DNA of 64,000 nt from a virus. The notes beneath the pieces are model-generated. The model searched no databases. It was not told the DNA's origin and saw only the letters and a program-made list of their open reading frames with translations. Below are positions 21,498 through 45,737 of this stretch, piece by piece. How positions within the stretch are numbered: the stretch's first letter is position 1; the number at the start of each line of letters is the position of its first letter. Position numbers and translations under genes: made by a program. The DNA is taken from the IMG/VR virus record IMGVR_UViG_3300033463_000089, positions 1-64,000 of that record; one strand, written 5' to 3'.

Positions 21498-24400
21498 CTA
21501 CTGAATCTTATCGAGTCCTCTTACGGTGTTCTCCATAATCTGGTCCATACGCATCTGAGCGGCTTCTTTCTGGGATTCGGTCTTCTTTGGATCGTCACAA
21601 ATCTTCTTTTGCTTATTGTAAGCCTTCAAAGAGTCGCTCATTATTTCCATTTTGGTAGCCTTAATACTGTCCGCAATAGAAATCTCCTTCATTTTTGCAA
21701 TCGGGTCTTTGGCACCAAATTCCTTCAACGAGTTCATCTGTGTCTTGAAGTCTTGCAACTGGTCTTTGTAGTAATACCACTTGTTCCTTGTTCTCGCCTG
21801 CTTATTCTGTTCTGTAGGAGAGTAATGAAACTTTCTTAGGATGGGAGTCTTGTCGCTTGATACGACATCTCTTAAAGTCGAGTTATCTTCTTTTATCATT
21901 CTATAGACGTGGGCGAGGTTTCCGGCAGTCTTACCAAGTCCTGCAAAGTAACTTTCCACAATGTGCTGAGCAATTGACGGGTCCGTCAGCCATCCATCCA
22001 AGCCTTTCTGGTTGTAATCGGCCTCAGAAATCATTTCCTCGTCAACTCCAAGCTTCTTCAACTTTTCCTCTGAGTAATCGTTGGTTGCTGCATTCCACTT
22101 CTTTGCAAGGCTCATATAAGCCTTGTTTACACTTCTATAAGCGCGTGTATGTCTTGGCTTTGAATCATTACCATAGTTTTCTTTCTCTATCGGTCTGCCA
22201 TAATAATTCTCGTTAAAACCTATCTCCAGAATTGGCCTTGCTGCACTTGGAGTAAAGTTGACAAGCGGGTTTCCTGGATGCTCACCCATGAAGTCAATAG
22301 GCAGTATCTGCGTCAACTGCGTAGTCACATCCTTCCAAACAGGCTTCTCTGATTTTAGGTCTGGATATTCGGTGTATCCTGCTGCCATATCTCCAATACC
22401 ATACATTGCTCTCAGTTCGATTGGAAGAGCGCAATACAAGAATTGTCCCTTGCCTATATACAGGCAGAGATTATTTCTTCTGATATATTCAGGAAGTTCG
22501 GCATAAGGATTCTTGATACCACCACGCTTGTCTTCGTCCTCCGAATCAATAAGACCTTGATTAATCCAACTCATAATGAAGGCACCAAGAGCAAAGCCGG
22601 TGAATACCGTGCTTGCCTTGATGGTGTGGTCTCTAAATAGCTTTGCGGCATTGTTCAATCCTTGCACTCCTGCATTATAGAACATGATGTAGTCTTGACC
22701 ATACTGTGCGGTTCTTGCAGCTACAAGAGCATTCATCCTCTGCAGGACGCTTCCATCTTTATTTACATCGCGTGTCTTGTATCCGGCACCCTTGCGGTTG
22801 AAGTTTACGCTTACCTCCTTGGCATCACTGACGGAGCGTGTTATAGAGCGTCCCATCTGTCTTGATGTCATATAGGTGGCGAATCGTGCCATATTCTCGG
22901 CTCGCTCATTCATTACCTCAATGGCGTGTGGCAATAGGTCGAATATATCCTTGCCGCCTCTAACCAGCTTTCTGCCGACATCCGAAGCGGTAAGTTTGCC
23001 ACTCTTCAAACTTTGCCAATCTTCCTTGGTTACGCGGTTTCTGATTGTATTCACGTTCTCCTTTACCAGCTTCTTCCACTTGTCGATGTTCTTACTTTCT
23101 ACCCAACCAGTCTCACCGCCATTCTTCATAAATTCACTGAAATAGCGGTCAGTTGGGTTGGACATATTTAATTCGCCTTTCTTGTAACGATTAAATAGAT
23201 TGGTTTTCATTAACGGAACCCCTGCGGCTACTCGACCGAAACCTCTACCAAAATAGTTAACCACCCATTGTGCAAAGTATTTTGAACTTTCTTTTATACC
23301 AATAGCAGATGCAGAGAATATCGCATCGCGCTCAGCGTTACTAATTATAAAGTCTGGGTTATATGAAGTGGCTAACTTTGCAATGACATTCTTTATACTC
23401 GACATATACGCAAAGTTACCTCTGCGCTCTGCCTTCAACTGTCCGTTGATGGCTTGTGCTGCTCTCGGACTACCATTGATGATGAACGAATGCTTTTCAC
23501 CGTTTATCCACACATCAACGATATGCTGTGCTTTATGCTCTCTGTCCGCAGGACGGAAAGGAATGTTGCTATTCTGACGAACACGCTTTGCATCGCCAGC
23601 GGCCTGCTTGGTTTTCATGTCCTGATTATACTGCTCAATTATCTGTGCAATATCATCGGCCTTGGCTCCCTCGGGAATATCGGGGAACTTTTCTACCCAT
23701 ATTTCGTTGCCTGCTGGATTGTACTGCTTCTCTGCCCACAGATAAGACAACTCGGTTACAAGTCTGTTGTCTGCCTCCACTTCGTTATAGTGGTTACGGA
23801 CAAATCTTGCAAACGCCTGCTTCATCTGATTTCTCAAAGCGCGATTGATGGCATTACTACTCATGGCACCCAAGGCTGCAAATACGTCTATATCTGCAAG
23901 GCTCTCGCGTCCCTTGGCATTCATCAGAACGGGGCCTGCCCACTTGCGGTCGCTTCCGTGTTCTTCCAAATAGTCGTAGACCTCTTCGGCGGTCTTTTCG
24001 TTATAACCCCTCAGAGGAACATACCACTCGAACATCTGACTTACCTTGTCGTGCTTCTCCTTGGAATCAATACCGCCCTCATATTCAGTGTCAAGCCCGA
24101 ACTGAGAAACGGCCTTTGTCTTATCCCAAAGATTCTTGACACGCGCATCGCCAAGCATAGATTCTATGCTCATCACTTCGTCTATAGCATCTGAGTCTAC
24201 TGTCTGGTCCCAAACGCCGTATAAGTCTGTAAGACCAGAGTAATCTTTATCTCCAACCTTATACTCCGGCAAGTTGTGCTTTATCCAGTTGTCGACCTCT
24301 TCAAAGTACTCACGGAGGTCTATATCTCCCCTTCGCAATTCGTCTCTGAGGTCATTCATGGTAACGAGATAGTCCTGCTCTAATTGGTCGGCCTTTGTTT

Positions 24401-27400
24401 TGTCTGTATTCCTAATGTCGCGCAGGGAGTCTCTGACGAACAACACGCGGTTGCGCTCCAAACCATGTTTCTTAATCATGTAGAGCTGCAGGTTTTTCAA
24501 CTGCTCATCAACGCCCTTACCCATATCAGGAAGGATGGCGGCTACGGCCTTATCCAAAGGCTCCATATAGTCACGGTTGAAGAGGAAGTCAAGCTGCTCT
24601 TCCTTGCTCGACATTTGGTTTTCCAACAACACAAAGTTTTCTGCTGACGGAATATCTTCTATCTTCTTTACACCACTGATTGAGCGCATCAACTCTATAG
24701 CGCTTTGCATAGCGTCGATATGCGCCTCTTTCCATACATATCCTATGCGCTTCAATGAACGCTCATAGTTCCTGCGCTGGTTCTTGACGGATGGGGTGTG
24801 TCTGAACAAAGTCTTTCCGCTACCGGGGAAGTATGGCACATAACTCTCCGTGTTGTCGGCAGCACCTTCACTATCATAGGCAAACTCGCCATTCTTCACC
24901 TTGGCTTCGTATTTCTCCTGTCCGAGTTTGTATAGCAAAGCTTCGCGCTCAATCTGATTCATGACATTGCCCTTTTCAAGATTGTGCTTACTCAGCCACA
25001 CCATATACTTAACGTCTGATATACTCGGACTCATGGTGAAGCCTACACTTCTCAAAGCATCGGTCATAACGTTCTTCACCTTCTGCCACATCGACAAATC
25101 GCCGTAGCCCTTTTCTGCTGCATCAGCAAGGAACTCGTCAATAGTGCGGTATGTATCGAAACCGTTCTTGGCAAGGTTCTCTTCCATGTACTTGCTTAAC
25201 TCTTCGTTCTTCAAGTCAAAGAGCAAAGAGCGCATATAACTCTTATACGCCTTCTCTCCAAGCAATTCACGGAAACCATAATGTCCTATAGTCTCGTGGG
25301 CAATAGTCTTCTCTGCATCGTAGGTATCTTTGACGTGAGGAAGATACAGGTAAATCTTCTTCTTGCCATCCTCACCAATCTCTACCCAACCGGGAACTTC
25401 TTTGCCAGCCGCGATAGCGTCCTTGACATCCTTATTCTTAATCTGGTCGGGAGAGGTAATAGCCTCAAAGTCAACATTCAGCTTCTTGGCAAGCTTTCGT
25501 CCTGCCTCTTCCTTTCGACGGAAATCAGCGTCAATAGTATTCTCGCTGCCACGGCTACGCATACGGGTTTCTGTTTCTTCGACATCTTCGAGCATGAAGC
25601 CGTCTTTTCCGTAAACATCACCCTTGTATTGTTCGTTATACTTGGCGTTGGCGTCAATAACGACAACGGAGCCATCTTTCTGCTCTACAATATTCCCATG
25701 ATGGGTATCTTTGACATAATACTTTTCGTTTCCAAACTCCAACCCGTCGCCGTAAATGTCGGACATACCCCTTTCTTCAAAGTATTGTTCAACCTTCTTG
25801 TCGATGCCATTCTGGAAATACTCTTCCATACTATACTGCTTGCCTTGGATAAAAGGCTGCTCGACAACAACATTAAACCTACCTTCCTTGTCACGGGAGA
25901 ATCCGACAACCTTATAAGCTGATTCAGGGAAAAGCTTATTAAAGACTTCGATATTTCTTAAAGCCTTTAATAAACCGCCATCGTTACGCTGGTATGGGTC
26001 GTTGAATTTTGTGATAGTCTTTCCGTCGGGCGAGAGATAAACACGGCTCTCACCACCCTTGGTAAGCATCTTTCCGTCGTAGGAAGATTTGGCAAACTCG
26101 TCCTCTTCCTTCCAATAGCCGGATGCCTTAGCCCAGTCTTCTACGGATTTTTCTATCTGCGCTCTTACAGGTTTGTCTGCATCATGCTCCGCGCGAATTG
26201 AAGCTGCTGCTGGAACTCCTCCCTTGTCTGCGGATATGATTTCTGCACCGATATGCGCCGCTGTAAGGCCTGTGCGCCCGCTTTCCGTATCTTCTCGTCC
26301 AAGGCGTGCTCGCCCGGAAACGACTCTTGATGCAAGTTCGTTGACTGTCTCATTGTACTGCTCTCCTTCTTTTTGGGGCAAAGATAAGAATAAATCCTCA
26401 GACTTCTCGTCTTTGCGCTCGTTATTTAACTTTTGTTCGGTTTTCTCTCGCTTGCGGAATCTTGTTGTCGGCTTATCCTCCAACTGCATGGTCTCGGCAT
26501 TGAACTCCTTGCCACTCTCGCGGTCAAAATCATACTCTACCTTCTGGTCGGGGTGTTCCTCGTTCCAATCGTCGATAACCTTTCTCGCCTCACGATCGCT
26601 CATGATACGATTAGCCTTGAAAGCACCGGCAACATACCAACCGATACGGTCGGCCTGCGAAGCTTCCTTGTTGGCATTGGTTGCCTTCATGTAGAAACCA
26701 TCCTCGGGGATATGTGTCGGTATGTCCTTGTCGGGATTCATGTTGGCCTCGTTCTGATAGTTCTTGTCGGCAGGCACTTCGCCCTCAACCCAAACAAATT
26801 TGTCATCACGAAGGTTTCTGTCCCTACCCTTGCCTATCTGACGCATGGAAGGTAATGAGCCGGCGTGCCAACCTGGGCGCATAGCGAACTCGCCAACTTG
26901 ACCACTTCCATTGATACCAATGTTCATATACTTGCGGTTCTCGCCCTCATATCTGCGCTGACCTCTCTCGGTGGCTGATATTCTCACAAAACGCTGCCCG
27001 TTGGCGGCTGCTTCGTTAATCATGTCAACAGACGGGTTCTTTCCAACCTTAACGCCTTTCTCTTTTGCATACTCTTCCAGCGTCTTATAAGTTCCATTGG
27101 CATAATCGACAATGAAAGTACCCTCCGGCATCTTCTTCAAGATGCTCATGTCGGGACTATCTGCATCGTACCACTTACCCAACTCCGTGGGATTTGCTGA
27201 ATCAATAAACAGAGGATAAAGCTTGCCGTCTTCCCCTAATCTCATCAGCTTATAGACCTTCTGTGTCTTCTTTGGCTCTTCTTTCTCTCTCAGACGGAAA
27301 CGGGTGGTAGTTCCCGGCTCCTGCGTCGTACCATTCAGACTGTCAGCAAACTTTCTTGCATCTTCCTCGGTCTTGAAGTGGAAAGCTTTCTTGAATCGGT

Positions 27401-30400
27401 TATAGTAACCGTCATACGCCTTTGCTCTACGCTCTACGGCGCGGTAGTCGTTATCGCTCAATCTTGCGCCATTGTAGCTAACAAGGTGCATATCATCGCC
27501 AGTACGGGTGTTCTTGTCAAGCTTATACTGATAGTCGCTCTTAGGCTGTGCCCCTCTTTGCGCAATATCTCTTATCTGCTCAACGACGGTTGATGTCCGA
27601 GCATTTACGGGCTCATTCAAATCTAACTTCTCGCCAGTCTGCCAATCAATACCTGCATTTCTGAGGATATTCTTTGAGCGCTCCGACAGTCTGAAATCAT
27701 TGCTGTGTGCGGCAACAATATTCATTCTGATACCATCCTCAGTTAGACTTGAATTGTTCGGATTCTCTCTGACTGCTGTTTCGGCAATAGTATTAATGCG
27801 CTCTCTCTTCTCTTGACGAATACGCTCGGTCTCGGCTTCTCGCTCTTGTATCCTGCGCCTGGTCTCCTCGTCACGCTCGCGTACCATCCTATCCATTTGG
27901 TCGGCGGTAACGCCCATCACGTTCTCCAGAGTCTTAATAGCTTGCTGGCAATAATCCTTGATAGCATCAATGGCAGGAATCTTGTCTTTTCCTCTGCCAT
28001 ACGTCTTATTATTGTATTTTCCGTATTCAAGCTCTTCAGGATTCTCCATCGTCTGTTTGAGGTTCTTATACCAGATAAGAGCGCTCTGCATACTCGGATT
28101 GTTGAGGTCGAGGCGTATTTCTGCCACATCATAGCGAGACCTACTGCGTACAACCAACAAATCGCCATAGATATTGAAATCGCTTGTAAACGGGTTGCTC
28201 TCCAGAGCTTTTTTAGTTTTCAGCGCCTTCTTTGTATTAATAGCCACTTGGTCAATGGTTCGCTCTGGCATACGGACAGTTCTCAACTGCTCGAACATAT
28301 CCTCCACGGTCTTGGCGTTGCTAATATCAAACGTAACCTTTTGCGGAGCTTTCCTCCTCATTTCCTCTCTCGATACTTTATCAATAACAAGTATGCGAGT
28401 CCGAACGCTTGTTCCTGCTCTTCCAAATGCGACATCAGGAAGTTTTACCTCGCCAATTACTACGGCAGAACCATTTACTCCGTCATAGCCGGTTGAGGCA
28501 AGCCAAGCGTCAACACGTTTTTCTGTTGCTGGGCCGTCTGGGATGATAGCAATCAGTCGGCCACCCTCATTAAGATGCTTAAATGCTTTGCCAACGTGTT
28601 CCATGGCAGTCTTGCCACCAACGCCATACGGCGGGTTCATCAGAATAGCATCGTGCTTATTCTGCAAAGGATAGTCCTCAAATGTCTTTTCTTCAAACTT
28701 TCTGCCGGGGCCGCCAGCTCGCATCTGCAAGCGAGAGAACAAAGCAGCACTTGGCTCTACGGCAGTCAAGGGGTTCGTCTCAGGCACATATCTCGCAATG
28801 GCTCCATGACCGGCACTCGGCTCCAAAACGCTTTCTTCGTCAAGAAGCTGTGCCCATTCCACCATCTTCCAACCTATAGGCTCAGGTGTCGGGAAGTAGT
28901 CAACACCCTCGCGGTTATCACGGCCTCTCTTCATCTTCTGATTGCCGTAGTAATCACTAATAGCGACATCGAAGCCGTCTTTCACACCTCGGCTGGCGAC
29001 CTGTCCGTCCATATCTTTACCACCAAATCCCTGACGCTCGTAGTCTATCTCGCCACTGTTCTCCAATACGGCATTGGCAATACTCTGGCGCAGGTTTCTT
29101 GCCTTGCTTCCAAGGGCAAGATTCTCGGTGGTTCCTAAAGCACTATTAAACTTCTGTGCAAACAGACTGGTTTCAAGATCAAGGCCAAGGAGAGGATACT
29201 CAAAGACGGCGTTACTCTTCTGACCTATTCTATATATACGACCTTCTATCTGAATAAATGCAATAGGACTCTGAGGTAAAGCAAGGTTGATTTCCACTCT
29301 CTGATGCTCACCGGTTTGGTCGTGCAAAGAGATACCTTCCTTACCGCTGGCTTCTTGAATGACGATAATATCTTTACCGCCATTATCTTTCATAAAGTCC
29401 TCTACGCTTGTATGCTTAGTCTTTTTGTTTTCAGCACCAGAGAAGAATCCTATGTTCTTCTCACCGAACACCTTTGCTATCTGGTCTCTTGGGAGGGTAT
29501 AGTCCAGCGTTTGCTCCCACTGCAACATATCCTTAAAGTCTGTCTCGAAGGCATGAATAGCAGAAAGAAGCTCCGATTTCTTATGCTGGTCTTGCATAGC
29601 CTCGGCCTCTATTCTTGCCATTGTCAATGCTCTTTCAAACGGTGGCTCCAAATCTCCGCTGGTTCTTCTGCGATGGAACACAACCACTTTCTGCCCTCTC
29701 TTCAAATGCTCTTTGATGCGGTCAATGACAAGCGAGGTTTTCATGGCCTCAAACAGAGCCGTTGAATAGTTGTAATCAAACGCCTTGCGGAATGTCTCTG
29801 CAAGAGGCTGATACTTCTTGTTGCGATACACCTCGCTCATGGCCTGGTTAAATCGGCCTGCATGGTCAAGAGTTAATACGGGGAAGTCTCTTGAATAGTC
29901 CCATTCGGAGTCAATCATGCGACCACTCATGGTCTGTAGATTGTTCTGCAAGTAGTCAGAGAAATCTATCTCCTGCCTACCAAGTGCTTCTTGGTTACTG
30001 ATGTGACTCTCCAAACGTCCGTATCTCCAACGATAACCGCCTGGGAATGTCTGCTCCAAGAAAGCTTCCTCGGGTGAGCGATGATTGTATGTACCGATAG
30101 TTTCTTTGTCTTCCTCGGGATAGCTGAAAATATAACCCTCTGCGTACTTCAAATTTTCGCGGGTATTGAACGGTGTTGCAGAAAGGAACACGGTTTTTGT
30201 TACCTTAGAATCTATCTCTGCCTGTGCTCGTTTACTCTCACGAATAGGCTGCTGCTCAGCAGGAATCTCTGCCAGACGCTGCTGCACCTCCAACTGACGT
30301 TTGTTGAGGCGGTCTTTCAGGGCCTCATCTTCTTTTGAAAGATAATCCTTGTCGTCAAGTTCTTCTATCTTGGCGGCATTTTCCTCAAACTCTTTTCTAA

Positions 30401-33400
30401 GATTGCGCTGCTCTACCCACAACGGCAGGTAGTACGTCTGACGATCAATAGACTTCTCTACATCTTTGTTGGTGAGCATCTGGTGAAACTTGAACATCTC
30501 ACCTTCTGCAGCCTCCTTACCTTCCGTAATCTTATGACTCTCGTCATAGATAACAAGGTCAAAGCAATCTTCCAACAAAGCAAGGTTCTGACGAGCGTTC
30601 GCATAGGTTGTAACAACAACACCCTTGCCTTTGGCTTTTGTGGCCGAAGTTCCGGCTGCTTTTGCGGCAGTGTCAAGATCTTCGATGTTTAGGCCAAGAT
30701 TCAAACCATCCTTTTTCCAGTCTGACACCTTCTCCTGACTCGGCGTAAGGATAAGTACTCTACCCTTTCCCTGCTTTACAAAACGCTTGGCAATTCCAAG
30801 GCCGGTATATGTCTTACCCGTACCCGTGCCATTGGTAAACATATATCCCTTTCCGTTGCCGTGCTCGCGGTCTTGGTGAGTCTCGTCAAAGAACTGCGTC
30901 TCAGACCTAAGCACGTCTTCGTGCTGCTCTGGCAAAAGATACGGTAATGTCTCGCGGATATTATCAACATCTCCGGTCTTGACTTCGATACTTTCGGCAG
31001 CCTTCTGCTTCTCAAACTTAGTGCCCAAGTCCTCGCGGACAACCTCTCTCAGCTTCTCTTCACCGATAAAAGATGCCCACTCGCGGATGGTGCGTGTAAC
31101 TCCGTCTATATTATATTCGCAATTCCATACTTCATTAAGGTATTCATCTATTTCTGCATCGCTCCATTTCATATCCTCCTGGAGCCAGTCGTGGAAGTCT
31201 TCAAGCATCTGCTTGCGCCAACCATCAAACTCACGAATACCTTTGACAAGATACTGATAACCGAGGTTGGCACTCTCAGTGGTAATATCCATGAGAATAC
31301 CAATCTGCTCGTTATTCATGCCGACAAGGGAGATAGTTGATTCTCCGTTGCGGCCTGCTTTCTTGAAACGTTCTCTTAGCTCTGCGAGTCGCTGCTTGCT
31401 GGCTGCGATGGCGGCATCACTTCCTGCTGCAAGCTTTTGAGTATTTCCGTCGCTTCGTCCACTTCCTCTGGACTTACCCAGTTGATTTCCCTCGACACCA
31501 GGTCGCACGCCTCCTCCGGCCAGTACACCTCCGGAAGAAAGCCCAGCCAATTCGGATGACGATTCAGAAACTCCGCTATCGCCTCCCTCTCCAGATATAC
31601 CGGGTAAGCGTCCCTCACTATTCTCCACACGTTGCTGTGTGGGTTGCTCTTGTCTTTCTCCAATGCCTGCACCTTCGGTTTCAACCACGCTGCTATCTGG
31701 TCCTCCAGCTCGTCCAGGTCGTCGCCCTGCAGAATCCTCTCCGCTATCCAACTGTGTTCCACGTTCGGGTAGCTGGCCATTTCCCTCAATTCTTTCTCTG
31801 GTAGTTCTAACATCGTTATAAGTGTTTAAGTATGCTGCTTTTTGTAATACGCCTTGGTTCCCGTTGAGGTAAGCCTTGGCGAGTGTCTTTTGCACATCAG
31901 AGACGGATGAACCATCTATCTCGTCAATGGTAAGCGGCGTGTCTGCAAACGCATCGGCCTGCTCCTTGTCTGCCATCTGCTGAGGTGTCTCGTTGTGGGT
32001 AACGCCGATGGCCTCGTCCTGCTCCTTTCTGAACTCCGTTGCCGTTTCATCTATCTTTTTCATTGGGTCTACCTCGGCTTTCTCTGAGAACTTTTTCATC
32101 GCCTCTCTTGCAGCCTCGGCATTTTCTTTGGGAATAGTCCAGCCTTTTCCGGACTCCCATTCGCCACCCATTTTTTTGAACTCGTTGTAAAGGTCTGTAT
32201 AATCGTCAGAAGTGACCTTACCATCTTGGATAACATTCTCATCCGTGATAGTTATCGAGCCATTCTTGTTCTCTTTTACAGAGAAGATGTTTGGTTTTTC
32301 TTCGCCGGTATCGAAACTCGTCTGCTTACGCTCGTTATCCAAAGCACCGCGAACACGGCTGTCATGCTCTTCTTGCGATTTCAGCCTTTCAAGCCTCTGC
32401 TCTGCATCTGCTACGGCATCGCGCTCTGCCTTGGTTCGCTTTTCAACTCCCTCTGCAGAAGTGTCGAGACCCATTTCTTCGGAAGAGAAGATTTGGTCTT
32501 CACTCTCAAAGGCCTTGTCGTTGGCAAACATATCGGTGGCCCGCTCACTCTCTTTGTTCTGAGCCTTTGCAAGCGCACTCTTTGCTTGTCTTACCTCTTC
32601 CTCGGCAGCTTTGACTTCCTCGGCAAGCTTCGCTTCAACGTCGGAAACAATCTTTTCTTCCTTCTCGTTGCGTGGCTTTAGGTATTCGTCTCGCTCTGAG
32701 GATTCGGATTCTCGGCTTGATTCAGCACGTCCTTCACCTTGGCCATCATTGCCTCTTTCTGCGCTTTCTTGGCCAGGTTCTTTTCCTTCACCATCTGCGG
32801 GAACTCGCGCATGCTCCATATCTTGCGCTTCGTCCCGTCTTTCTCCGTTACTTCTATCATTGATATAATCCTTTATTGTTTGTACTCTCTTTCTCAGCTC
32901 TTCGGGAGTTAGGTCGCCGGAGTAAACGGTAATCTTGCCGGTTTCTTCATCGAAGAACACTCCCTCTTCAAGAGCATATCGCTTTACAGCTTCTATTTCT
33001 TCTTCTCCGATAAAGGCTCCGTCGTTGGCTTTTTCAGCAAGTTCTCTCCAAGTGTCTGCCGATACTCTGTCTGTATCAACAATCTTAATCTCTGGAGTAC
33101 CTTCTTCTTTCATCAAAGCCTCTGCTTCTTTGAGTAGCTTGGTGATGGGCGCGTCGGGAATATCTTCGTCTGTAGACTGAGCAAACGGCATTTCTTCTTC
33201 AATCTTTGCCACCTCTTCTGCTGACAGTTCTATTCTCTCGTTGCGCTCTGCCTCTTCCTTTAGTCTGGCTTGCTCGGCTTCCCATGCCTTCTGTGCTTTT
33301 TCGACGCGGTTGCGAAGAACATATTCGGTAATATCTTTTCCGCTTTCTGCTGACAAGAAGAGGTCGATGATTGCGTCGCCGATTTGCCGCTCGTCGAATC

Positions 33401-36400
33401 GCTTTCTATCTTCACCGTCTAAACCGTGAATAGTGTTCTCGTCGCTACGCCATACCTTATCAACAAACTCGTCGAAGCCCATGCCGGTGGTATCATCCTT
33501 ACCTTTGAAAAGATGTGCAAAGGCGTGGCCCTCGCTACCTCTTCTTCCACCAAACTCGGTATTGATACCTAACGCAGTCTTGAAGCCTCTGATGACGCCT
33601 CCAGCTCCATTTGGCTTGTCTTCCCAACTGAATTGTCTGCCAGTTCCAATGTTCAATGCAACAAGTTCTGTGGCATCGCCAGGAACATCTATATCATCAT
33701 TGAACGAAGGGCCGTACTTCTTCTTGTATCGTTCTACAAGCTGCTGCAGGCGTGACTTCAAAGAAGGCTTCTTTTCGGCCTCCGGCTGCTCACTTGCAAC
33801 CTTTGGTTGCAAAGGTACAACATTTTGAGGTTCGTTGTTCTCTACAGGCGCAACATTTAAGTTAGTTTCAGGCTTGTTTGCTTTCTCTAACTCTTTCTTG
33901 GCAGAAGTCCAATAGTCCACCTTCTGCTGTGCCTCAGCTTTCTGTGCGTCTATATTGTCCTGCTCTTTGGCTCTCTTAATGGGGTCGCTGCTCTTCGGTG
34001 TCAGCTTCTCTGCGGCCTTAACATCTTTCTCTGAGGCCTTAATCTTAGCGTCGACGGCATCAATCACGCGCTTCTTGTCGCCGTGATTAATCTCGTCCAA
34101 TGCGGATAATGTATCTTCTACGGGTGCTTGCTCCCACTGGTACTGAGGGTCGCCCTCTTCGTTAAGAACGTCCGCACCTTGTTCGTCTTTCAAGGTGGGT
34201 ATCTTGGAAATAGCAGTCTCTTGTTCTGGCACTACAGCACCTTCTTCTTGCCCTGGAGCCGGTTGCAAAACCTCATTTGTATTCTGTTCGCTTTCGCCCT
34301 GCTTTTCTTCTTCGGGGTTGACAAGGCCAGCTTCTACAGCTGTGTTGGAAGATTCCACCTGCAACTGCTCACGCACTCTGTTTGCGTACTCTTCTTTTGC
34401 CTCACGGCCTGCAATTGACATGGTGGCATCTGGCTTGGTAGGTAAAAATCGTCCATCCTTTGCTCTGAGGATAATCTGACCGCTTGACTTATCCGGGTCT
34501 ACACTTACTCCGTCTCGCGTACCTATATTACCATTCACAAGGATAAAGTTCTCTCCGTCTTTTGTAATGGTAATAATGTTTGCCTGGTCTGCTTCCTCGT
34601 CAATAGTTCCATGGAAAGACTTCTCGGTTACGTCTTGGGAAACCTGCTCGTCGATGTTCGCGCCGGTCTGTTCAATGTAACCGTCTTTCTTGGCTTTTGC
34701 ATTAGCATAGTCAGCCAGCTTTTCAAGGAAGTTGTCAACCTCCGGCCCGCTAAAGTTGTCGCGGATATACATATATATATCGTCCAGACGTGCGGATTCG
34801 CCAAGGGCTTCAAGTGCTTGTTGAATTTCCTCACTACGGGAGGCTGAGAGATAAGCATCGCGTGCGGCGTTATACTCTTGTGCCACCTGTGCAGCAGTCT
34901 CGGGATTCATAACACCACTACCGCCTGCAAGTGTTTCTCCGTCAATTCTTGATTGCTCGGTGTGCTTTTCACCTACGGGATAGGCGGCATCGTGAAGACG
35001 CTTTGCAAGCTCATTCATAAGGTCTTGTTCATCGTCTACACGTTCAATGGGTTTCTTGTGCATGATGTCGAGAACTTCCTCTACCGTCATATTGCACTCG
35101 TTAGCAAACTCAGCCACTATCTCGTTACCCCAATTTGCTTTCTCTCTTGCTCGGTCAAGAACAATATCGTAGCTCTTACCACCCGGCTCTACGTCTTGCG
35201 GACGAAGGCCCGGATTTACCTGCAGAAGTTCTTGTGCCGACTGACGAATCATTTCTTCGGTCGGGTCTGATACCTTAATCTTACTCAGTACACCATAGTC
35301 AGAAATCATATCATCGTTAGCGCGACGATCTTCAATCTGCTGGCGAATCTGCATGAGTTCGTTGACATCAGAATACTTGTGTACCTCTATCAATTCTCCC
35401 GTAGCAGAACGCTCGCTAATGGTCTTGTCTGTGCCGTTAATATTGATGTCCTTGGTACGAGGGCGGCTTGACTCACAGGCATTTTGCACCTGTGCAGACA
35501 CCTTCATGCGAGTAGTCCAAGGTATGTTTTGTCTATCAGACAGAATCTTGCCTACATTGTTAATATCCGATGCTATCTCTGCGAAATCCATACCGGCGAA
35601 AGCACGCTGTATAGATTCCCTATCCATATCATTGAGTTGTATAGGCGCGTTCTTCGACTGCTTAACGGAGAATATATCTTTCAGTTCGCGTCCTACGCCT
35701 TTAAGTCCGTGGCCGGACGAGAACTTAGAACCTATCTGCATATAGAAAGCGTCTGCTGCACTATCTACCCAATTAAAATTCTCTGGGTCAGATATATAGT
35801 CCAGGCCGGTGAAAATCTGGTTCTCCACCAAGAATGAACCACCATAGAAAGCCGCCTTTTTACCGATATTCTTCTGTCCTACCGTTCCTATCCTGCCTCC
35901 TAATTCATGTGCAGCTACGCCAAATGCACCAGTGGCAAAACCGAACTTAGCACCTTCCCATGCTCCTTCAAGTGCAGCGTGACCGATTGACGAAAGTGTG
36001 CCATCGCCCGTTGACATTTCCTGCAAGGCACTTGAACCTCCCATGAATGTTGACATTGAGCCAGCACCTCTTAACATGGCATTGGTATAGATACCACCAT
36101 ATTTAACTACCTTGCTAACGTTTGCGGCAAGGAACGGGCTTCCCGTTGCAACTATATGGCCAAGTTCCTTCTGTCCCAAACTTGCTATGGCGGAACCTAT
36201 GGCTTTAGTACCAAACTCGCCTACCGTGCCGGTTACCATAAGAACAGGTGCATCTGGTGCGAACATAGCAACACTACCAGCCATTCTTGCACCAATACCG
36301 GCGTTATAATGCTTTCCTTTTCCTTCTTCCGTCTTAAATAGTTCCTCATTGCGCATCCTGCGCTCCATCTTTGACATGGTAGACATTCCTGCAAGTGTTC

Positions 36401-37559
36401 CTATTACGGAGTTGCTCATCTTGCGAGTAAGGTAGTCTGCCACGTCCTTGACAGAATACTTCTCTTCCATGTGCTTCTGGAATCCCTGCGCAATACCTTC
36501 GCTTACCTGCGGTATAAACTCCTGCCATACGAAGTCTTCTACAGGCATACCAAGACGTGCGGCACTTGCTTCTATCAAGTCTCTGTTTTGTTCTACAAGT
36601 CCGTTGGCAAAGTCCGTTGCCTCGCCAGTGCTATTGCCGAAGAAATCGGGTCTTGAATCAAGCTTTGCACCATAACGCTTGTTTAGTGCATCCAAAAGGC
36701 TTTCTGGGCTTGTGATACTAGAAGTCTTCGCCAATTCCGGCGACATAACATTAGTGTCGAGGTTCTTTCCTTCAAGGCCCTTTTTCAATATGTCACGACC
36801 TTGCTTTTCAAGTTCATCTTGAAGTCCAAGGATTGCACCATTTACTGCAGGGTTGATGGCCTGTTTCTGCAACTGCTTGCGGATAACCTCTCTTTCTTGT
36901 TGCTGATACTGCGCCACACGCTGCTCGTCAGTGGTCTGCCCCATCAGCATTTGCCCGCTTTCGTCTCTTACGGCGGTAGGTGCTGTCACGGGTGTATTGA
37001 CGATGTTTGCAAGCGGTTTTCCTGTAGCTTCGTAGTACTCGCGCTCTTGCTGCATACGCTGAACGGCAGTATCAAGACCGCTTTCCTTGGCGGCTTTCTT
37101 GTCGCCCTTGATGGCCTTATCTAACTGCTGAACGGTGTTTTTCTTTTGCTCAACGGCTTTACCTGTCTGCGGGTTAATGGGCTGGCCTTTTGCAGTACCC
37201 CACGACGAAGCACCTTTGCCCATAGCCATTTGGTTGGCCTGCTGCAAATCCAACTCACCGAAACCTTCCGGAATTGGCGAAGGCTTCTGTTGGGTAGCTT
37301 GTGGTTTCTGCTGAGGCTTCGCCGGTTGCTGTGGTTTGGTTGCGAAATCGGTGCTTATGCTACCGAAGAAATCGTCCTCGGAGCCTATCTCATTCTCGTC
37401 AAAGATACCGCTTTTGATTAGATTTTGATGGAATTGTCTTGATGATTTCTCATCTTTAATGGCATTCTTAAAGTCGTTAAGACTGCCGATCTGACTTTCA
37501 TCAACCTTTCCAGAACCAATAAGGTTGCGATACAACTGCTCTCTCTTATCTTGTGCCAT
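21498..37559 (-). CDS. Giant multi-domain 'polyvalent' protein (5,353 aa): helicase + N6-MTase + kinase-like + HExxH peptidase; DarB-like injected-cargo candidate
   Basis: Single uninterrupted ORF. Motifs read directly from the translation are listed in the sub-features. A late-type promoter lies at 38595-38636. Confidence 0.85.
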   Translation of the reverse strand: MAQDKREQLYRNLIGSGKVDESQIGSLNDFKNAIKDEKSSRQFHQNLIKSGIFDENEIGSEDDFFGSISTDFATKPQQPAKPQQKPQATQQKPSPIPEGFGELDLQQANQMAMGKGASSWGTAKGQPINPQTGKAVEQKKNTVQQLDKAIKGDKKAAKESGLDTAVQRMQQEREYYEATGKPLANIVNTPVTAPTAVRDESGQMLMGQTTDEQRVAQYQQQEREVIRKQLQKQAINPAVNGAILGLQDELEKQGRDILKKGLEGKNLDTNVMSPELAKTSSITSPESLLDALNKRYGAKLDSRPDFFGNSTGEATDFANGLVEQNRDLIEASAARLGMPVEDFVWQEFIPQVSEGIAQGFQKHMEEKYSVKDVADYLTRKMSNSVIGTLAGMSTMSKMERRMRNEELFKTEEGKGKHYNAGIGARMAGSVAMFAPDAPVLMVTGTVGEFGTKAIGSAIASLGQKELGHIVATGSPFLAANVSKVVKYGGIYTNAMLRGAGSMSTFMGGSSALQEMSTGDGTLSSIGHAALEGAWEGAKFGFATGAFGVAAHELGGRIGTVGQKNIGKKAAFYGGSFLVENQIFTGLDYISDPENFNWVDSAADAFYMQIGSKFSSGHGLKGVGRELKDIFSVKQSKNAPIQLNDMDRESIQRAFAGMDFAEIASDINNVGKILSDRQNIPWTTRMKVSAQVQNACESSRPRTKDININGTDKTISERSATGELIEVHKYSDVNELMQIRQQIEDRRANDDMISDYGVLSKIKVSDPTEEMIRQSAQELLQVNPGLRPQDVEPGGKSYDIVLDRAREKANWGNEIVAEFANECNMTVEEVLDIMHKKPIERVDDEQDLMNELAKRLHDAAYPVGEKHTEQSRIDGETLAGGSGVMNPETAAQVAQEYNAARDAYLSASRSEEIQQALEALGESARLDDIYMYIRDNFSGPEVDNFLEKLADYANAKAKKDGYIEQTGANIDEQVSQDVTEKSFHGTIDEEADQANIITITKDGENFILVNGNIGTRDGVSVDPDKSSGQIILRAKDGRFLPTKPDATMSIAGREAKEEYANRVREQLQVESSNTAVEAGLVNPEEEKQGESEQNTNEVLQPAPGQEEGAVVPEQETAISKIPTLKDEQGADVLNEEGDPQYQWEQAPVEDTLSALDEINHGDKKRVIDAVDAKIKASEKDVKAAEKLTPKSSDPIKRAKEQDNIDAQKAEAQQKVDYWTSAKKELEKANKPETNLNVAPVENNEPQNVVPLQPKVASEQPEAEKKPSLKSRLQQLVERYKKKYGPSFNDDIDVPGDATELVALNIGTGRQFSWEDKPNGAGGVIRGFKTALGINTEFGGRRGSEGHAFAHLFKGKDDTTGMGFDEFVDKVWRSDENTIHGLDGEDRKRFDERQIGDAIIDLFLSAESGKDITEYVLRNRVEKAQKAWEAEQARLKEEAERNERIELSAEEVAKIEEEMPFAQSTDEDIPDAPITKLLKEAEALMKEEGTPEIKIVDTDRVSADTWRELAEKANDGAFIGEEEIEAVKRYALEEGVFFDEETGKITVYSGDLTPEELRKRVQTIKDYINDRSNGERRDEAQDMEHARVPADGEGKEPGQESAERGNDGQGEGRAESSRESESSERDEYLKPRNEKEEKIVSDVEAKLAEEVKAAEEEVRQAKSALAKAQNKESERATDMFANDKAFESEDQIFSSEEMGLDTSAEGVEKRTKAERDAVADAEQRLERLKSQEEHDSRVRGALDNERKQTSFDTGEEKPNIFSVKENKNGSITITDENVIQDGKVTSDDYTDLYNEFKKMGGEWESGKGWTIPKENAEAAREAMKKFSEKAEVDPMKKIDETATEFRKEQDEAIGVTHNETPQQMADKEQADAFADTPLTIDEIDGSSVSDVQKTLAKAYLNGNQGVLQKAAYLNTYNDVRTTRERIEGNGQLPERGTQLDSGEDSAGRRPGRAGGPDSSVVETEGAGIGERQEQPTQQRVENSEGRLPGISGEGGDSGVSESSSELAGLSSGGVLAGGGVRPGVEGNQLGKSRGSGRSDGNTQKLAAGSDAAIAASKQRLAELRERFKKAGRNGESTISLVGMNNEQIGILMDITTESANLGYQYLVKGIREFDGWRKQMLEDFHDWLQEDMKWSDAEIDEYLNEVWNCEYNIDGVTRTIREWASFIGEEKLREVVREDLGTKFEKQKAAESIEVKTGDVDNIRETLPYLLPEQHEDVLRSETQFFDETHQDREHGNGKGYMFTNGTGTGKTYTGLGIAKRFVKQGKGRVLILTPSQEKVSDWKKDGLNLGLNIEDLDTAAKAAGTSATKAKGKGVVVTTYANARQNLALLEDCFDLVIYDESHKITEGKEAAEGEMFKFHQMLTNKDVEKSIDRQTYYLPLWVEQRNLRKEFEENAAKIEELDDKDYLSKEDEALKDRLNKRQLEVQQRLAEIPAEQQPIRESKRAQAEIDSKVTKTVFLSATPFNTRENLKYAEGYIFSYPEEDKETIGTYNHRSPEEAFLEQTFPGGYRWRYGRLESHISNQEALGRQEIDFSDYLQNNLQTMSGRMIDSEWDYSRDFPVLTLDHAGRFNQAMSEVYRNKKYQPLAETFRKAFDYNYSTALFEAMKTSLVIDRIKEHLKRGQKVVVFHRRRTSGDLEPPFERALTMARIEAEAMQDQHKKSELLSAIHAFETDFKDMLQWEQTLDYTLPRDQIAKVFGEKNIGFFSGAENKKTKHTSVEDFMKDNGGKDIIVIQEASGKEGISLHDQTGEHQRVEINLALPQSPIAFIQIEGRIYRIGQKSNAVFEYPLLGLDLETSLFAQKFNSALGTTENLALGSKARNLRQSIANAVLENSGEIDYERQGFGGKDMDGQVASRGVKDGFDVAISDYYGNQKMKRGRDNREGVDYFPTPEPIGWKMVEWAQLLDEESVLEPSAGHGAIARYVPETNPLTAVEPSAALFSRLQMRAGGPGRKFEEKTFEDYPLQNKHDAILMNPPYGVGGKTAMEHVGKAFKHLNEGGRLIAIIPDGPATEKRVDAWLASTGYDGVNGSAVVIGEVKLPDVAFGRAGTSVRTRILVIDKVSREEMRRKAPQKVTFDISNAKTVEDMFEQLRTVRMPERTIDQVAINTKKALKTKKALESNPFTSDFNIYGDLLVVRSRSRYDVAEIRLDLNNPSMQSALIWYKNLKQTMENPEELEYGKYNNKTYGRGKDKIPAIDAIKDYCQQAIKTLENVMGVTADQMDRMVRERDEETRRRIQEREAETERIRQEKRERINTIAETAVRENPNNSSLTEDGIRMNIVAAHSNDFRLSERSKNILRNAGIDWQTGEKLDLNEPVNARTSTVVEQIRDIAQRGAQPKSDYQYKLDKNTRTGDDMHLVSYNGARLSDNDYRAVERRAKAYDGYYNRFKKAFHFKTEEDARKFADSLNGTTQEPGTTTRFRLREKEEPKKTQKVYKLMRLGEDGKLYPLFIDSANPTELGKWYDADSPDMSILKKMPEGTFIVDYANGTYKTLEEYAKEKGVKVGKNPSVDMINEAAANGQRFVRISATERGQRRYEGENRKYMNIGINGSGQVGEFAMRPGWHAGSLPSMRQIGKGRDRNLRDDKFVWVEGEVPADKNYQNEANMNPDKDIPTHIPEDGFYMKATNANKEASQADRIGWYVAGAFKANRIMSDREARKVIDDWNEEHPDQKVEYDFDRESGKEFNAETMQLEDKPTTRFRKREKTEQKLNNERKDEKSEDLFLSLPQKEGEQYNETVNELASRVVSGRARLGREDTESGRTGLTAAHIGAEIISADKGGVPAAASIRAEHDADKPVRAQIEKSVEDWAKASGYWKEEDEFAKSSYDGKMLTKGGESRVYLSPDGKTITKFNDPYQRNDGGLLKALRNIEVFNKLFPESAYKVVGFSRDKEGRFNVVVEQPFIQGKQYSMEEYFQNGIDKKVEQYFEERGMSDIYGDGLEFGNEKYYVKDTHHGNIVEQKDGSVVVIDANAKYNEQYKGDVYGKDGFMLEDVEETETRMRSRGSENTIDADFRRKEEAGRKLAKKLNVDFEAITSPDQIKNKDVKDAIAAGKEVPGWVEIGEDGKKKIYLYLPHVKDTYDAEKTIAHETIGHYGFRELLGEKAYKSYMRSLLFDLKNEELSKYMEENLAKNGFDTYRTIDEFLADAAEKGYGDLSMWQKVKNVMTDALRSVGFTMSPSISDVKYMVWLSKHNLEKGNVMNQIEREALLYKLGQEKYEAKVKNGEFAYDSEGAADNTESYVPYFPGSGKTLFRHTPSVKNQRRNYERSLKRIGYVWKEAHIDAMQSAIELMRSISGVKKIEDIPSAENFVLLENQMSSKEEQLDFLFNRDYMEPLDKAVAAILPDMGKGVDEQLKNLQLYMIKKHGLERNRVLFVRDSLRDIRNTDKTKADQLEQDYLVTMNDLRDELRRGDIDLREYFEEVDNWIKHNLPEYKVGDKDYSGLTDLYGVWDQTVDSDAIDEVMSIESMLGDARVKNLWDKTKAVSQFGLDTEYEGGIDSKEKHDKVSQMFEWYVPLRGYNEKTAEEVYDYLEEHGSDRKWAGPVLMNAKGRESLADIDVFAALGAMSSNAINRALRNQMKQAFARFVRNHYNEVEADNRLVTELSYLWAEKQYNPAGNEIWVEKFPDIPEGAKADDIAQIIEQYNQDMKTKQAAGDAKRVRQNSNIPFRPADREHKAQHIVDVWINGEKHSFIINGSPRAAQAINGQLKAERRGNFAYMSSIKNVIAKLATSYNPDFIISNAERDAIFSASAIGIKESSKYFAQWVVNYFGRGFGRVAAGVPLMKTNLFNRYKKGELNMSNPTDRYFSEFMKNGGETGWVESKNIDKWKKLVKENVNTIRNRVTKEDWQSLKSGKLTASDVGRKLVRGGKDIFDLLPHAIEVMNERAENMARFATYMTSRQMGRSITRSVSDAKEVSVNFNRKGAGYKTRDVNKDGSVLQRMNALVAARTAQYGQDYIMFYNAGVQGLNNAAKLFRDHTIKASTVFTGFALGAFIMSWINQGLIDSEDEDKRGGIKNPYAELPEYIRRNNLCLYIGKGQFLYCALPIELRAMYGIGDMAAGYTEYPDLKSEKPVWKDVTTQLTQILPIDFMGEHPGNPLVNFTPSAARPILEIGFNENYYGRPIEKENYGNDSKPRHTRAYRSVNKAYMSLAKKWNAATNDYSEEKLKKLGVDEEMISEADYNQKGLDGWLTDPSIAQHIVESYFAGLGKTAGNLAHVYRMIKEDNSTLRDVVSSDKTPILRKFHYSPTEQNKQARTRNKWYYYKDQLQDFKTQMNSLKEFGAKDPIAKMKEISIADSIKATKMEIMSDSLKAYNKQKKICDDPKKTESQKEAAQMRMDQIMENTVRGLDKIQ
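25200..25397 (-). other. Giant ORF segment: HExxH zinc-metallopeptidase-like motif (aa ~4055-4120)
   Basis: TIAHETIGHYGFRE, with HETIGH at 25281-25298. Confidence 0.5.
25605..26066 (-). other. Giant ORF segment: protein-kinase-like fold (aa ~3832-3985)
   Basis: GGESRVYLSPDGKTITKF (Gly-loop/Lys-like), then YVKDTHHGNIV (25692-25709, catalytic-loop-like D..N) and VVIDAN (DFG-like). Confidence 0.5.
28380..28922 (-). other. Giant ORF segment: N6-adenine-type DNA methyltransferase (aa ~2880-3060)
   Basis: Motif I VLEPSAGHGAIA (~28800-28830) and motif IV NPPY (28626-28637). Confidence 0.75.
29160..30962 (-). other. Giant ORF segment: SF2 (SNF2/DExH-like) helicase (aa ~2200-2800)
   Basis: Walker A GTGTGKT (30810-30830), Walker B DESH (30534-30545) and motif VI QIEGRIYRIGQ (29220-29252). 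Confidence 0.8.
31376..31813 (-). CDS. Candidate overprinted ORF (145 aa, +1 frame inside the giant ORF)
   Basis: ATG 31811-31813, stop 31376-31378. The product is acidic, Trp-rich and globular-looking. The giant frame is low-complexity exactly over this span. See findings. Confidence 0.3.
   Translation of the reverse strand: MLELPEKELREMASYPNVEHSWIAERILQGDDLDELEDQIAAWLKPKVQALEKDKSNPHSNVWRIVRDAYPVYLEREAIAEFLNRHPNWLGFLPEVYWPEEACDLVSREINWVSPEEVDEATEILKSLQQEVMPPSQPASSDSQS
35805..36413 (-). other. Giant ORF segment: Gly/Ala-rich hydrophobic region (aa ~383-585)
   Basis: GIGARMAGSVAMFAPDAPVLMVTGTVGEFG...GAGSMSTFMGGSS...GFATGAFGVAAHELGG. Glycine-zipper-like, as in membrane-inserting ejection or tape-measure segments. 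Confidence 0.5.
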
Positions 37560-38571: not shown

Positions 38572-38594
38572 AAAAATAACGTTATTTCTTCGGG

Positions 38595-38636
38595 CAAATA
38601 TAGCGCATACGCGCGTACCTTCTTCCTCGTCTCGGA
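38595..38636 (-). promoter_or_regulatory. Late-type promoter 3 (332-aa gene + giant ORF)
   Basis: The minus strand reads TCCGAGACGAGGAAGA (38636-38621), an 18-nt spacer, then TATATTTG (38602-38595). ATG lies 23 nt downstream. Confidence 0.6.
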
Positions 38637-38664
38637 TTGTGCATTTGTTATATTTTATTAATTG

Positions 38665-38747: not shown

Positions 38748-39266
38748 ATGAAGCAAGATTATAGTCTATCAAAACAGATGCAGGACGACCTCATCAAAGC
38801 CTATAACGAGGTCGCAAAGCATTGCTGGTATCAGAAGGATGCCTACAGGAGAACGGTCGAGCACCCGGCTCCGAGGTATTATGTGTCGCCGCATCATGCA
38901 GCAGAAATCCTCTCTCCCATGCTACGGGGTGATTTCAGTCGTGTGGACAAGATGCACCCGAACAAACGGAGATTGTACTATTCTCTCTACAAAGAGGTGG
39001 CTAAGATGTCAGAAGAGAGGGAGTTCGTAGGCAAGTCGCTTACTTACGTCGCTCAGTTCGCCGTCTTACGCCCTGCCCCCGAGTTCTTTTTATCAGTCAG
39101 TCAGTTCCAGGACATGAGGCTATGGATAAAGAGGGGACTGATACGCGACGATGGCAGTTACACTCCCCTCCCTCATCTTGTTCGCTCACATGAGAGGCTG
39201 ACGAAGAAACGCGCGAGGGCGAAAGCCAGAAGAGAAGCGTTGGAGAAAAAGGACTTAGAAGCTTGA
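38748..39266 (+). CDS. Hypothetical basic protein
   Basis: Track ORF trimmed to MKQDYSLSK (ATG 38748), 8 nt after a TATATTTG box. Basic C-terminus KKRARAKARREALEKK. Its 3' end overlaps the terL stop by 12 nt (convergent). Confidence 0.5.
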   Translation: MKQDYSLSKQMQDDLIKAYNEVAKHCWYQKDAYRRTVEHPAPRYYVSPHHAAEILSPMLRGDFSRVDKMHPNKRRLYYSLYKEVAKMSEEREFVGKSLTYVAQFAVLRPAPEFFLSVSQFQDMRLWIKRGLIRDDGSYTPLPHLVRSHERLTKKRARAKARREALEKKDLEA

Positions 39267-45735: not shown

Positions 45736-45737
45736 CT

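Follow-up and report, generated by a model that had tools for sequence, protein, structure and literature searches.

We analyzed 64,000 nucleotides (nt) of viral DNA, positions 1 to 64,000 of IMG/VR record IMGVR_UViG_3300033463_000089 (here called the window), and in particular a 16-kb gene on its minus strand that encodes a protein of 5,353 amino acids (aa). This giant protein is likely an encapsidated ejection protein of a temperate podovirus-type Bacteroidales phage that also delivers counter-defense or takeover enzymes. The protein family is defined by the conserved ends and not by the enzymes; the ends probably serve in packaging and ejection, and the enzymes are exchangeable cargo. An earlier reading of the DNA without database searches (the sequence-only reading) had proposed a polyvalent counter-defense or takeover cargo. 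The polyvalent core of that proposal holds, but its emphasis on pure counter-defense cargo gives too little weight to the conserved end modules, which look like the delivery part. The gene and the parts of its product are as follows.

21498..37559, minus strand: giant gene, ATG start, 5,353 aa plus stop codon.
33726..37559, minus strand: conserved N-terminal module (N-module), aa 1-~1278, delimited by collinear alignment with other giants.
37356..37541, minus strand: tandem-repeat mini-domain, aa 7-68, two 28-aa repeats with 14/28 residues identical.
35760..36422, minus strand: Gly/Ala-rich, mildly hydrophobic segment, aa 380-600, G+A ~0.30.
32337..33725, minus strand: acidic low-complexity linker, aa ~1279-1741, poorly kept among relatives.
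29190..30896, minus strand: superfamily 2 (SF2) helicase of the Strawberry-notch type, aa ~2222-2790, with motifs I (GTGTGKT), II (DESH) and VI (QIEGRIYRIGQ).
28344..28904, minus strand: N6-adenine-type DNA methyltransferase (MTase), aa ~2886-3072, with motifs TP (FPTPEP), LEPSAGHG and NPPY.
27288..27305, minus strand: linker motif 1, TRFRLR, aa 3419-3424, at the boundary of the MTase block and domain X.
26478..27299, minus strand: "domain X", a conserved cassette, aa 3421-3694, with homologs 45-63% identical.
26448..26465, minus strand: linker motif 2, TRFRKR, aa 3699-3704, at the boundary of domain X and the kinase.
25641..26153, minus strand: Kinase-PolyVal, aa 3803-3973, Pfam PF18762 (E = 2e-25; 89.9 bits, cut-off 27), with GGESRVY, DTHHGN and IDAN.
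25551..25568, minus strand: linker motif 3, TRMRSR, aa 3998-4003, at the boundary of the kinase and the C-module.
21531..25490, minus strand: conserved C-terminal module (C-module), aa ~4024-5343, shared with other giants by BLASTP.
25113..25298, minus strand: HExxGH motif and, ~53 aa downstream, a [D/E]E[F/Y][I/L]A..AE motif, aa 4088-4149, in a 17-sequence alignment (A1).
22560..22616, minus strand: top 19-aa hydropathy window, aa 4982-5000, just upstream of LPD38; maximum of the whole protein, 1.29.
21882..22511, minus strand: LPD38 domain, aa 5017-5226, Pfam PF18857 (E = 1e-29; 104.4 bits, cut-off 27).

The 16-kb gene is real. In agreement with the sequence-only reading, translation gave one uninterrupted open reading frame (ORF) on the minus strand, from ATG to a single stop, and the motif positions quoted there were all exact (GTGTGKT, 30810-30830; DESH, 30534-30545; QIEGRIYRIGQ, 29220-29252; LEPSAGHG, 28803-28826; NPPY, 28626-28637; DTHHGN, 25692-25709; HETIGH, 25281-25298). 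There is no internal stop across 5,353 codons, for which the chance is ~1e-136 based on the regional base composition, and the remaining two frames of this strand are interrupted by 264 and 388 stops. Metagenomic contigs sometimes yield chimeric giant ORFs, and fragments are common among the database relatives, so that an assembly or annotation artefact or a decaying pseudogene has to be considered. We regard the likelihood of this as negligible, given the improbability of the open frame, the undamaged catalytic motifs, full-length collinear relatives of 3,400-6,300 aa known from independent assemblies and genes for 3,633 and 5,553 aa in cultured phages. Moreover, an alignment-based scan for the C-module, covering one genome per species among reference genomes and metagenome-assembled genomes, located it at 207 loci, nearly all in Bacteroidales. 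Of the 80 loci kept, ~45 have a module ORF that is open through the whole 10-kb upstream flank, equivalent to at least 4,500 aa. This rules out an assembly artefact and indicates that giant fusions are the norm, the giants thus being typical of a widespread group of Bacteroidales prophages. Complete module ORFs, 11 in number, ranged from 1,573 to 4,534 aa. A single-sequence query against reference genomes returned no close relatives, whereas the alignment-based scan did find loci. Some relatives of 1,300-2,000 aa had been taken for standalone C-module genes, an interpretation that we withdrew: P0011 begins at a contig end, and P0004 (2,008 aa; locus L088, ENA scaffold MERR22-1...scaffold_377, 1559-16027) represents the 3' portion of a collinear giant of ~4,800 aa that is interrupted by a 100-N scaffold gap. 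Many "short" database relatives are such fragments, and catalog length statistics for this family are therefore biased downward.

The C-terminal ~1,250 residues, previously described as motif-less, turn out to be better conserved than any other part and contain LPD38. By BLASTP, aa ~4024-5343 are the sole region in common with the deposited giants BKO1-TP3 gp55 (E = 4e-120), BF1-TP2 gp68 (2e-87) and, over aa 4453-5158, Gamede gp42 (1e-22), Bcep22 gp75 (2e-20) and Stx P27 gp51 (1e-17). Using tblastn, we detected the C-module in 334 deposited phage genomes, mainly those of Vibrio, Stx-converting and Ralstonia phages and of the Burkholderia Bcep22 group. LPD38 is positioned ~100-200 aa from the C terminus in 5/5 giants scanned, with entirely different domains upstream (ddrB-ParB/InPase/SNF2; InPase/ART/PBECR5; SLT/MTase/SNF2/LPD3; LPD5/LPD1/MuF_C). 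In four of these five proteins the most hydrophobic window ends 17-19 residues before the LPD38 match (hydropathy 1.29-1.75), and in the fifth only two overlapping windows outscore the one preceding LPD38. Every giant tested (n=5) also has a hydrophobic patch within its first ~600 aa.

Sharing of the C-module with giants whose homologs were found in virions by mass spectrometry supports virion delivery. JC1 gp69 (4,515 aa; lytic transglycosylase-like, MTase, helicase, LPD3 and LPD38), for which Bcep22 gp75 is the best BLASTP match at 79% identity, was detected in purified virions by mass spectrometry (PMC9144972). According to proteomics, phi24B gp47 (2,811 aa; LPD5, LPD1, LPD38) is abundant in virions, although it is absent from the cryo-electron microscopy (cryo-EM) map, and its authors proposed that it is packaged in the capsid and acts in ejection (bioRxiv 10.64898/2026.04.10.717836). 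Stx P27 gp51 has a matching set of domains. In our alignments with the window protein, Bcep22 gp75 and Stx P27 gp51 stood in for JC1 gp69 and phi24B gp47. Knock-down of the LPD38 protein PTXU04_00025 resulted in a large drop in plating efficiency (PMC11879866), which fits a role beyond optional counter-defense.

At the opposite end, the N-module aligns from the N termini onward with the giants P0033, P0034, P0035 and P0036 (3,400-6,300 aa) at 38-45% identity. An exhaustive HMMER search with aa 1-1200 yielded 95 cluster representatives, including many collinear giants of 3,400-6,348 aa, and there was no match to the N-module in deposited phage genomes. The two tandem repeats noticed earlier at the N terminus were confirmed (aa 7-34 and 41-68), as were acidic linkers (aa ~700-2000). 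Regarding the Gly/Ala-rich segment, which had been likened to membrane-inserting segments, the composition was as described, but its hydropathy is not that of a membrane helix: the peak over 19 residues is 1.22, and no window reaches the classical transmembrane level. The segment contains 14 small-xxx-small-xxx-small motifs compared with 3.4 expected, a four-fold excess.

The tandem-repeat mini-domain also forms the C terminus of small proteins of 120-260 aa that have one hydrophobic, membrane-anchor-like helix (P0081, P0089, P0094, P0095, P0097 and P0099). One may speculate that on these anchored-looking proteins the mini-domain is a docking partner or element, or a superinfection-exclusion decoy.

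Between the end modules, full-length BLASTP against the closest N-module giants revealed a variable middle in which cassettes are gained, lost and reordered, with both end modules kept. In P0035, the equivalent of residue ~3427 of the window protein is joined directly to that of ~3998, leaving out domain X and the kinase, and in P0033 the interval ~3427-3998 is swapped for unrelated sequence. P0036 is devoid of the helicase-MTase pair; P0039 has domain X upstream of the helicase; and in P0042, which lacks domain X, the C-terminal block of similarity starts exactly at residue 3700. The pattern T-R-[F/M]-R-x-R occurs three times in the protein compared with 0.34 expected occurrences, each time at a cassette boundary where the collinearity with relatives breaks off. 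The junction in P0035 carries a single "PTTRFRLREKE" linker, and TRFS, TRFK, TYFR and KYFR variants are present in other relatives. The linker copies use different codons and are identical at 34/63 nt; they are thus maintained as peptides, not as DNA repeats of recent origin, and we rejected an origin as nucleotide repeats on these grounds. The linkers could be processing sites or boundary elements.

Profile searches supported three of the four enzymatic segments that had been read by eye, the helicase, the MTase and the kinase, through Pfam and PHROG matches, and gave none for the peptidase. The helicase is assigned to the Strawberry-notch type of SF2 based on Pfam ResIII (5e-14) and AAA_34 (3e-07, above the cut-off) at aa 2222-2349 together with Helicase_C_4 (4e-05, below the cut-off) at aa ~2713-2789. 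PHROG DNA-methyltransferase families matched the MTase (1e-29 and 1e-18), and Pfam MTS was borderline at aa ~2910-3006 (8e-05, 0.3 bits under the cut-off). The protein also matches three PHROG families of giant proteins (phrog_10691, phrog_5143 and phrog_14770). A sequence search of solved structures with both halves of the protein returned only marginal helicase matches to XPB (E = 0.04), and NCBIfam models run on ten tiles gave only sub-threshold helicase matches.

Domain X has no Pfam model and no match in deposited phage genomes. Its homologs occur in proteins that also match LPD3, Kinase-PolyVal, MPTase-PolyVal or PBECR3. An AlphaFold2 model of domain X was fairly confident (predicted local distance difference test, pLDDT, 73; predicted template modeling score 0.73), and Foldseek comparison of this model gave a best E of 0.45 in the PDB and only uncharacterized viral proteins in BFVD. 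Domain X may be an undescribed polyvalent-protein domain and is possibly enzymatic. Invariant stretches within it read GINGSG, RPGWHAGSLP.MRQIGKG and NPDKDIPTHIP.

The genes surrounding the giant gene are consistent with a virion-associated role.

2779..3519, minus strand: SU10-like head-tail adaptor (Pfam SU10_adaptor, 9e-05, below the cut-off).
4248..5933, minus strand: SU10-like major capsid protein (Pfam SU10_MCP, 6e-11).
6934..8901, plus strand: P22-like portal (Pfam P22_portal, 8e-25; phrog_156, 3e-45).
37573..38571, minus strand: 332-aa gene, 13 nt upstream of the giant gene and probably co-transcribed with it.
~38753-39266, plus strand: divergent ~170-aa gene between TerL and the 332-aa/giant operon, with its own TATATTTG box at ~38737-38749.
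39255..41432, minus strand: large terminase TerL (phrog_2, 3e-17; 35-39% identical to those of BF1-TP2, BKO1-TP3 and BS-TP4).
50504-51646: integrase.
52868-53626: CI-like repressor.
58180-60168: SbcC-like recombination protein.

By its genes alone, the window is a temperate phage of the podovirus (short-tailed) type, with the morphology read from the structural genes. No conjugation genes were found among the window ORFs scanned. The sequence-only reading had remarked on the lack of a tape-measure gene, and indeed no tape-measure family of Pfam or PHROG matches within the window; podovirus-type structural genes explain this. In relatives, too, the giants are syntenic with structural genes. The 332-aa protein is weakly similar by BLASTP to BKO1-TP3 gp56 (6e-06) and BF1-TP2 gp69 (8e-04), and its gene occupies the position that the genes for the "virion-associated" proteins Bcep22 gp74, Gamede gp41 and JC1 gp68 have ahead of the giants in their genomes. 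Contrary to the placement of the giant gene directly next to the packaging genes, the divergent plus-strand gene splits its two-gene operon from TerL; what connects them is a promoter element common to this operon and the TerL, portal and capsid operons.

38592..38637, minus strand: promoter of the 332-aa/giant operon, consisting of ATCCGAGACGAGGAA, ~19 nt and then CTATATTTGCCC.
6869..6914, plus strand: the same promoter architecture, upstream of the portal/tail operon.
6797..6811, minus strand: the same 15-nt element with 1 mismatch, facing the scaffold/capsid operon.
43455..43469, minus strand: the same 15-nt element with 1 mismatch, upstream of the operon ending in TerL.

The layout of the four copies is AAATG.., (A/G)TCCGAGACG(A/G)GGAA, ~19 nt, (C/T/G)AT(A/C)TTTGC. 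Allowing up to 3 mismatches, the 15-mer has 10 matches compared with 1.9 expected, and 0/100 shuffles reached 10. CTATATTTGCCC matches the -7 box of Bacteroidota, the consensus of which we take to be TAnnTTTG. The 15-mer sits in place of the usual Bacteroidota -33 element and may be recognized by an activator or sigma factor specific to the phage. The element was absent from 88/88 related loci, and scans for sigma-70 promoters and terminators, which are uninformative for a Bacteroidota host, remained at chance level. Sharing of this element with the capsid, portal and terminase operons places the giant gene in the morphogenesis regulon, and so the late-type promoter postulated earlier is supported by the sequence.

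The protein is a member of the polyvalent class as defined by Iyer et al. 2017, who established Kinase-PolyVal and LPD38 as families in their survey and regarded such proteins as early-acting conflict effectors (PMC5512222). It combines unrelated domains (helicase, MTase, Kinase-PolyVal, LPD38) in one ORF and is encoded by a phage with a portal-terminase packaging system, members of the class being found in such phages or in conjugative elements. The matches to the class-specific Kinase-PolyVal (2e-25) and LPD38 (1e-29) bear out this part of the sequence-only reading. Its comparison with P1 DarB was only partly appropriate. P1 DarB (2,255 aa) likewise combines an EcoKI/TaqI-like, gamma-class N6-adenine MTase, which has a TP motif and NPP(Y/F), with an SF2 helicase and is capsid-packaged, in ~40 copies per virion, via a functionally defined N-terminal signal of 30 residues (PMC9024508). 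In a direct BLASTP comparison, only the MTase core (DarB aa 88-284; 24% identity, pairwise E = 1e-4) and helicase motif VI (E = 0.002) aligned. The domain order is reversed, the MTase of DarB at aa ~88-284 being followed by its helicase at ~827-1523, whereas in the window protein the helicase precedes the MTase. The helicase of DarB is of the SWI2/SNF2 type; that of the window protein is best matched by profiles of the Strawberry-notch type (ResIII, AAA_34 and Helicase_C_4). The window protein thus has DarB-like parts without the architecture of DarB. In addition, DarB is laid out as LPD36 - MTase - SF2 helicase with no LPD38 module, whereas the window protein has no Pfam match to LPD36; and P1 is a myovirus in which DarB needs the partners DarA, Hdf, DdrA/B and Ulx. 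General scans of the neighboring genes gave no match to the Dar partner families, for which no dedicated search was made.

Bcep22 gp75 (4,602 aa) is similar in setting, as a giant ORF that ends the virion module and is preceded by a virion-associated protein. It has LPD38 near its C terminus, contains an MTase and an SF2 helicase and, like JC1 gp69, is annotated as a "DarB-like antirestriction protein". It differs by an N-terminal SLT lytic transglycosylase and LPD3, by an MTase that precedes a helicase of the SNF2 type, and by the absence of Kinase-PolyVal, domain X, HExxGH (by regular expression) and BLASTP similarity to the N-module of the window protein; the host is a proteobacterium. Stx P27 gp51 is the product of a temperate podovirus and has a homologous C-module (1e-17) with LPD38 near the C terminus. 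The giants of Stx phages (phi24B gp47 and P27 gp51; 2,811-2,867 aa) are half the size, however, and carry LPD5, LPD1 and MuF_C as cargo instead of a helicase, MTase or kinase.

The closest cultured relatives are the ~65-kb temperate Bacteroides phages BF1-TP2, BKO1-TP3 and BS-TP4, reported in a paper that does not discuss their giants (PMC12694917). BKO1-TP3 gp55 (5,553 aa) and BF1-TP2 gp68 (3,633 aa) are 27-28% identical to the window protein over ~1,300 aa of the C-module; they come from the same host order and are encoded near portal and terminase genes, and the 5,553-aa protein is annotated as "DarB-like antirestriction". Their cargo is different, namely ddrB-ParB, InPase and SNF2 helicase, or InPase, ART-PolyVal and PBECR5, and the N-module has no detectable counterpart in them save one weak match (3e-4). 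Giants of this kind and size, such as Bcep22 gp75 and BKO1-TP3 gp55, are already deposited and partly studied; the window protein is therefore no new kind of system. In length it ranks with the largest phage proteins recorded. A 2021 paper gave first place among known phage proteins to gp27 of the Erwinia podophage Pavtok (5,007 aa), a putative ejection protein that is partly homologous to one of P1, and argued that such proteins pass the tail at least partly unfolded (PMC8402733). Going by this description, the window protein is longer, as are metagenomic relatives of up to 6,348 aa.

For packaging, ejection, membrane activity, enzyme targets and the proteolytic release of cassettes, we infer a course of events as follows. 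The end modules would bring the protein into the capsid late in infection. In the next infection, the protein would leave by way of the short tail in an at least partly unfolded state, and its end modules would help to build or extend a channel across the cell envelope, as do the ejection proteins of other short-tailed phages. By analogy only, T7 gp14-16, P22 gp7/16/20 and the N4 virion RNA polymerase are head-packaged and ejected through a short tail at least partly unfolded, and some of these are very large or enzymatic. The enzyme cassettes would ride along and act in the cell within the first minutes. Here the helicase-MTase pair would most likely methylate or shield the incoming DNA against restriction, and Kinase-PolyVal would most likely modify host or defense proteins.

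Several observations weigh against this interpretation. Virion delivery is supported for this phage indirectly, by way of homologs, the promoter and the structural genes, and homology to the experimentally studied giants is limited to ~480-700 aa at 23-24% identity. The role of phi24B gp47 as an ejection protein is itself a proposal of its authors. No segment of the window protein attains the hydropathy of a classical transmembrane helix (maximum 1.29). The channel-forming role is suggested by analogy alone, because the AlphaFold2 model of the C-module, mostly alpha-helical and of moderate confidence (pLDDT 58), matched no solved ejection protein, with no Foldseek match in the PDB below E = 0.24. 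Alignment-profile searches of solved structures with the C-module and domain X likewise gave nothing at or below E = 0.39, and we found no sequence or structural likeness of the giant protein in the solved-protein libraries, the ejection-protein content of which was not checked. Finally, the window may not span the whole genome, so that a tape-measure gene could sit outside it.

An alternative view is that the protein is purely accessory, a DarB-like anti-restriction cargo that is packaged and injected but has no role in genome delivery and is dispensable on restriction-free hosts. Its N6-adenine MTase is of DarB's clade (TP, LEPSAGxG, NPPY; 24% identity) and is accompanied by a helicase, relatives are annotated as "DarB-like antirestriction", and early-acting conflict effectors are what Iyer et al. 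2017 envisaged. We nevertheless consider this unlikely: the likeness to DarB is confined to the MTase core, with the order reversed and a Strawberry-notch helicase; P0036 and Stx P27 gp51 have kept the C-module without a helicase-MTase; the LPD38 protein of phage PTXU04 is required for efficient infection; and the N- and C-modules are far more consistently conserved than any cassette.

The position of the gene in the morphogenesis regulon bears on a further possibility, that of a multi-enzyme protein which stays out of the virion and acts in DNA modification, replication or takeover within the producing cell. A helicase, an MTase and a kinase could all work there, and sequence alone is no proof of packaging. 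This is very unlikely in light of the late-promoter element shared with the capsid, portal and terminase operons, the synteny with structural genes in relatives, and the detection of homologous giants in purified virions. We attach still less probability to an external structural protein, whether a tail fiber, a central fiber or a tape-measure-like ruler. The huge size, the long helical or low-complexity stretches, the Gly/Ala-rich segment and the lack of a tape-measure gene in the window would be compatible with such a protein, but the structural genes are of the podovirus type, the catalytic motifs of three enzymes are intact, which would be odd for a fiber, and phi24B gp47 is abundant by proteomics yet not seen in the cryo-EM reconstruction of the virion exterior. 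Fiber-type, Ig-like features are instead found on the ORFs at 8898-12956 and 15385-17913. An encapsidated ejection protein that carries enzymes along thus remains our preferred interpretation.

HETIGH, read earlier as an HExxH peptidase motif, instead follows the pattern HExxGH, in which three residues separate E from the second H, and has no profile or structure support: there was no Pfam match to a peptidase family at E <= 5 in this region and no PDB profile match. In the 17-sequence alignment A1, H4088, E4089 and H4093 are invariant or near-invariant, and the full HE-x-x-[G/A]-H + [D/E]-E-[F/Y]-[I/L]-A..AE pattern is present in 16/17 rows at a constant ~1,190-1,280 aa from the C terminus. 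We take this arrangement of HExxGH and a downstream motif to resemble that of gluzincin-type metallopeptidases, in which case the downstream Glu could be a ligand. The region could therefore be a candidate zincin-like site. An assignment to LPD3 was rejected upon reading the LPD3 sequence of Bcep22.

Combining these elements leads to a more speculative proposal, which we term a delivery chassis and think rather doubtful as a whole. The end modules with their membrane-active segments would eject, the linker-bounded cassettes would be swappable, the HExxGH domain would cut the linkers, and the mini-domain would act in docking or as a decoy. If the linkers were cleavage sites of the HExxGH domain, an injected polyprotein of ~600 kDa would cut itself into free enzymes inside the cell. 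Bacteriophages would then have an equivalent of viral polyproteins, into which new counter-defense cassettes could be plugged.

With the window protein, the giant virion-borne polyvalent proteins gain a well-resolved representative from gut Bacteroidales. Its value lies in its anatomy, with two conserved end modules, sharply bounded cassettes, domain X and a candidate self-processing site. This anatomy provides a route to understanding how podoviruses package and eject very large proteins, and which defenses of gut Bacteroidales are beaten by the cargo. The parts most worth following up are the cassette linkers, the candidate self-processing site, domain X and the N-terminal mini-domain.

Elsewhere in the window, which contains no tRNAs, a 152-aa protein encoded at 41401-41859 on the minus strand overlaps the start of TerL by 32 nt and has a Rhomboid match (E = 7e-05, just above the Pfam cut-off). 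In the same position, BKO1-TP3 gp50 and BF1-TP2 gp59 are annotated as rhomboid-like. Either an intramembrane protease of the phage or a misread small subunit of the terminase might be encoded here. Following the portal gene, the 1,352-aa ORF at 8898-12956 (plus strand) has an immunoglobulin (Ig)-like (Big_2) match and is succeeded by three tandem plus-strand ORFs (12992-13588, 13600-14376 and 14382-15017). All four match phrog_19255, and this paralogous set probably encodes tail or fiber proteins. Ig-like, fiber-type features are also present on the ORF at 15385-17913. The G+C content is ~0.45-0.53 in the structural half (1-44000) compared with ~0.39-0.46 in the lysogeny/early half (44001-64000), and the GC skew changes sign near 44-46 kb.

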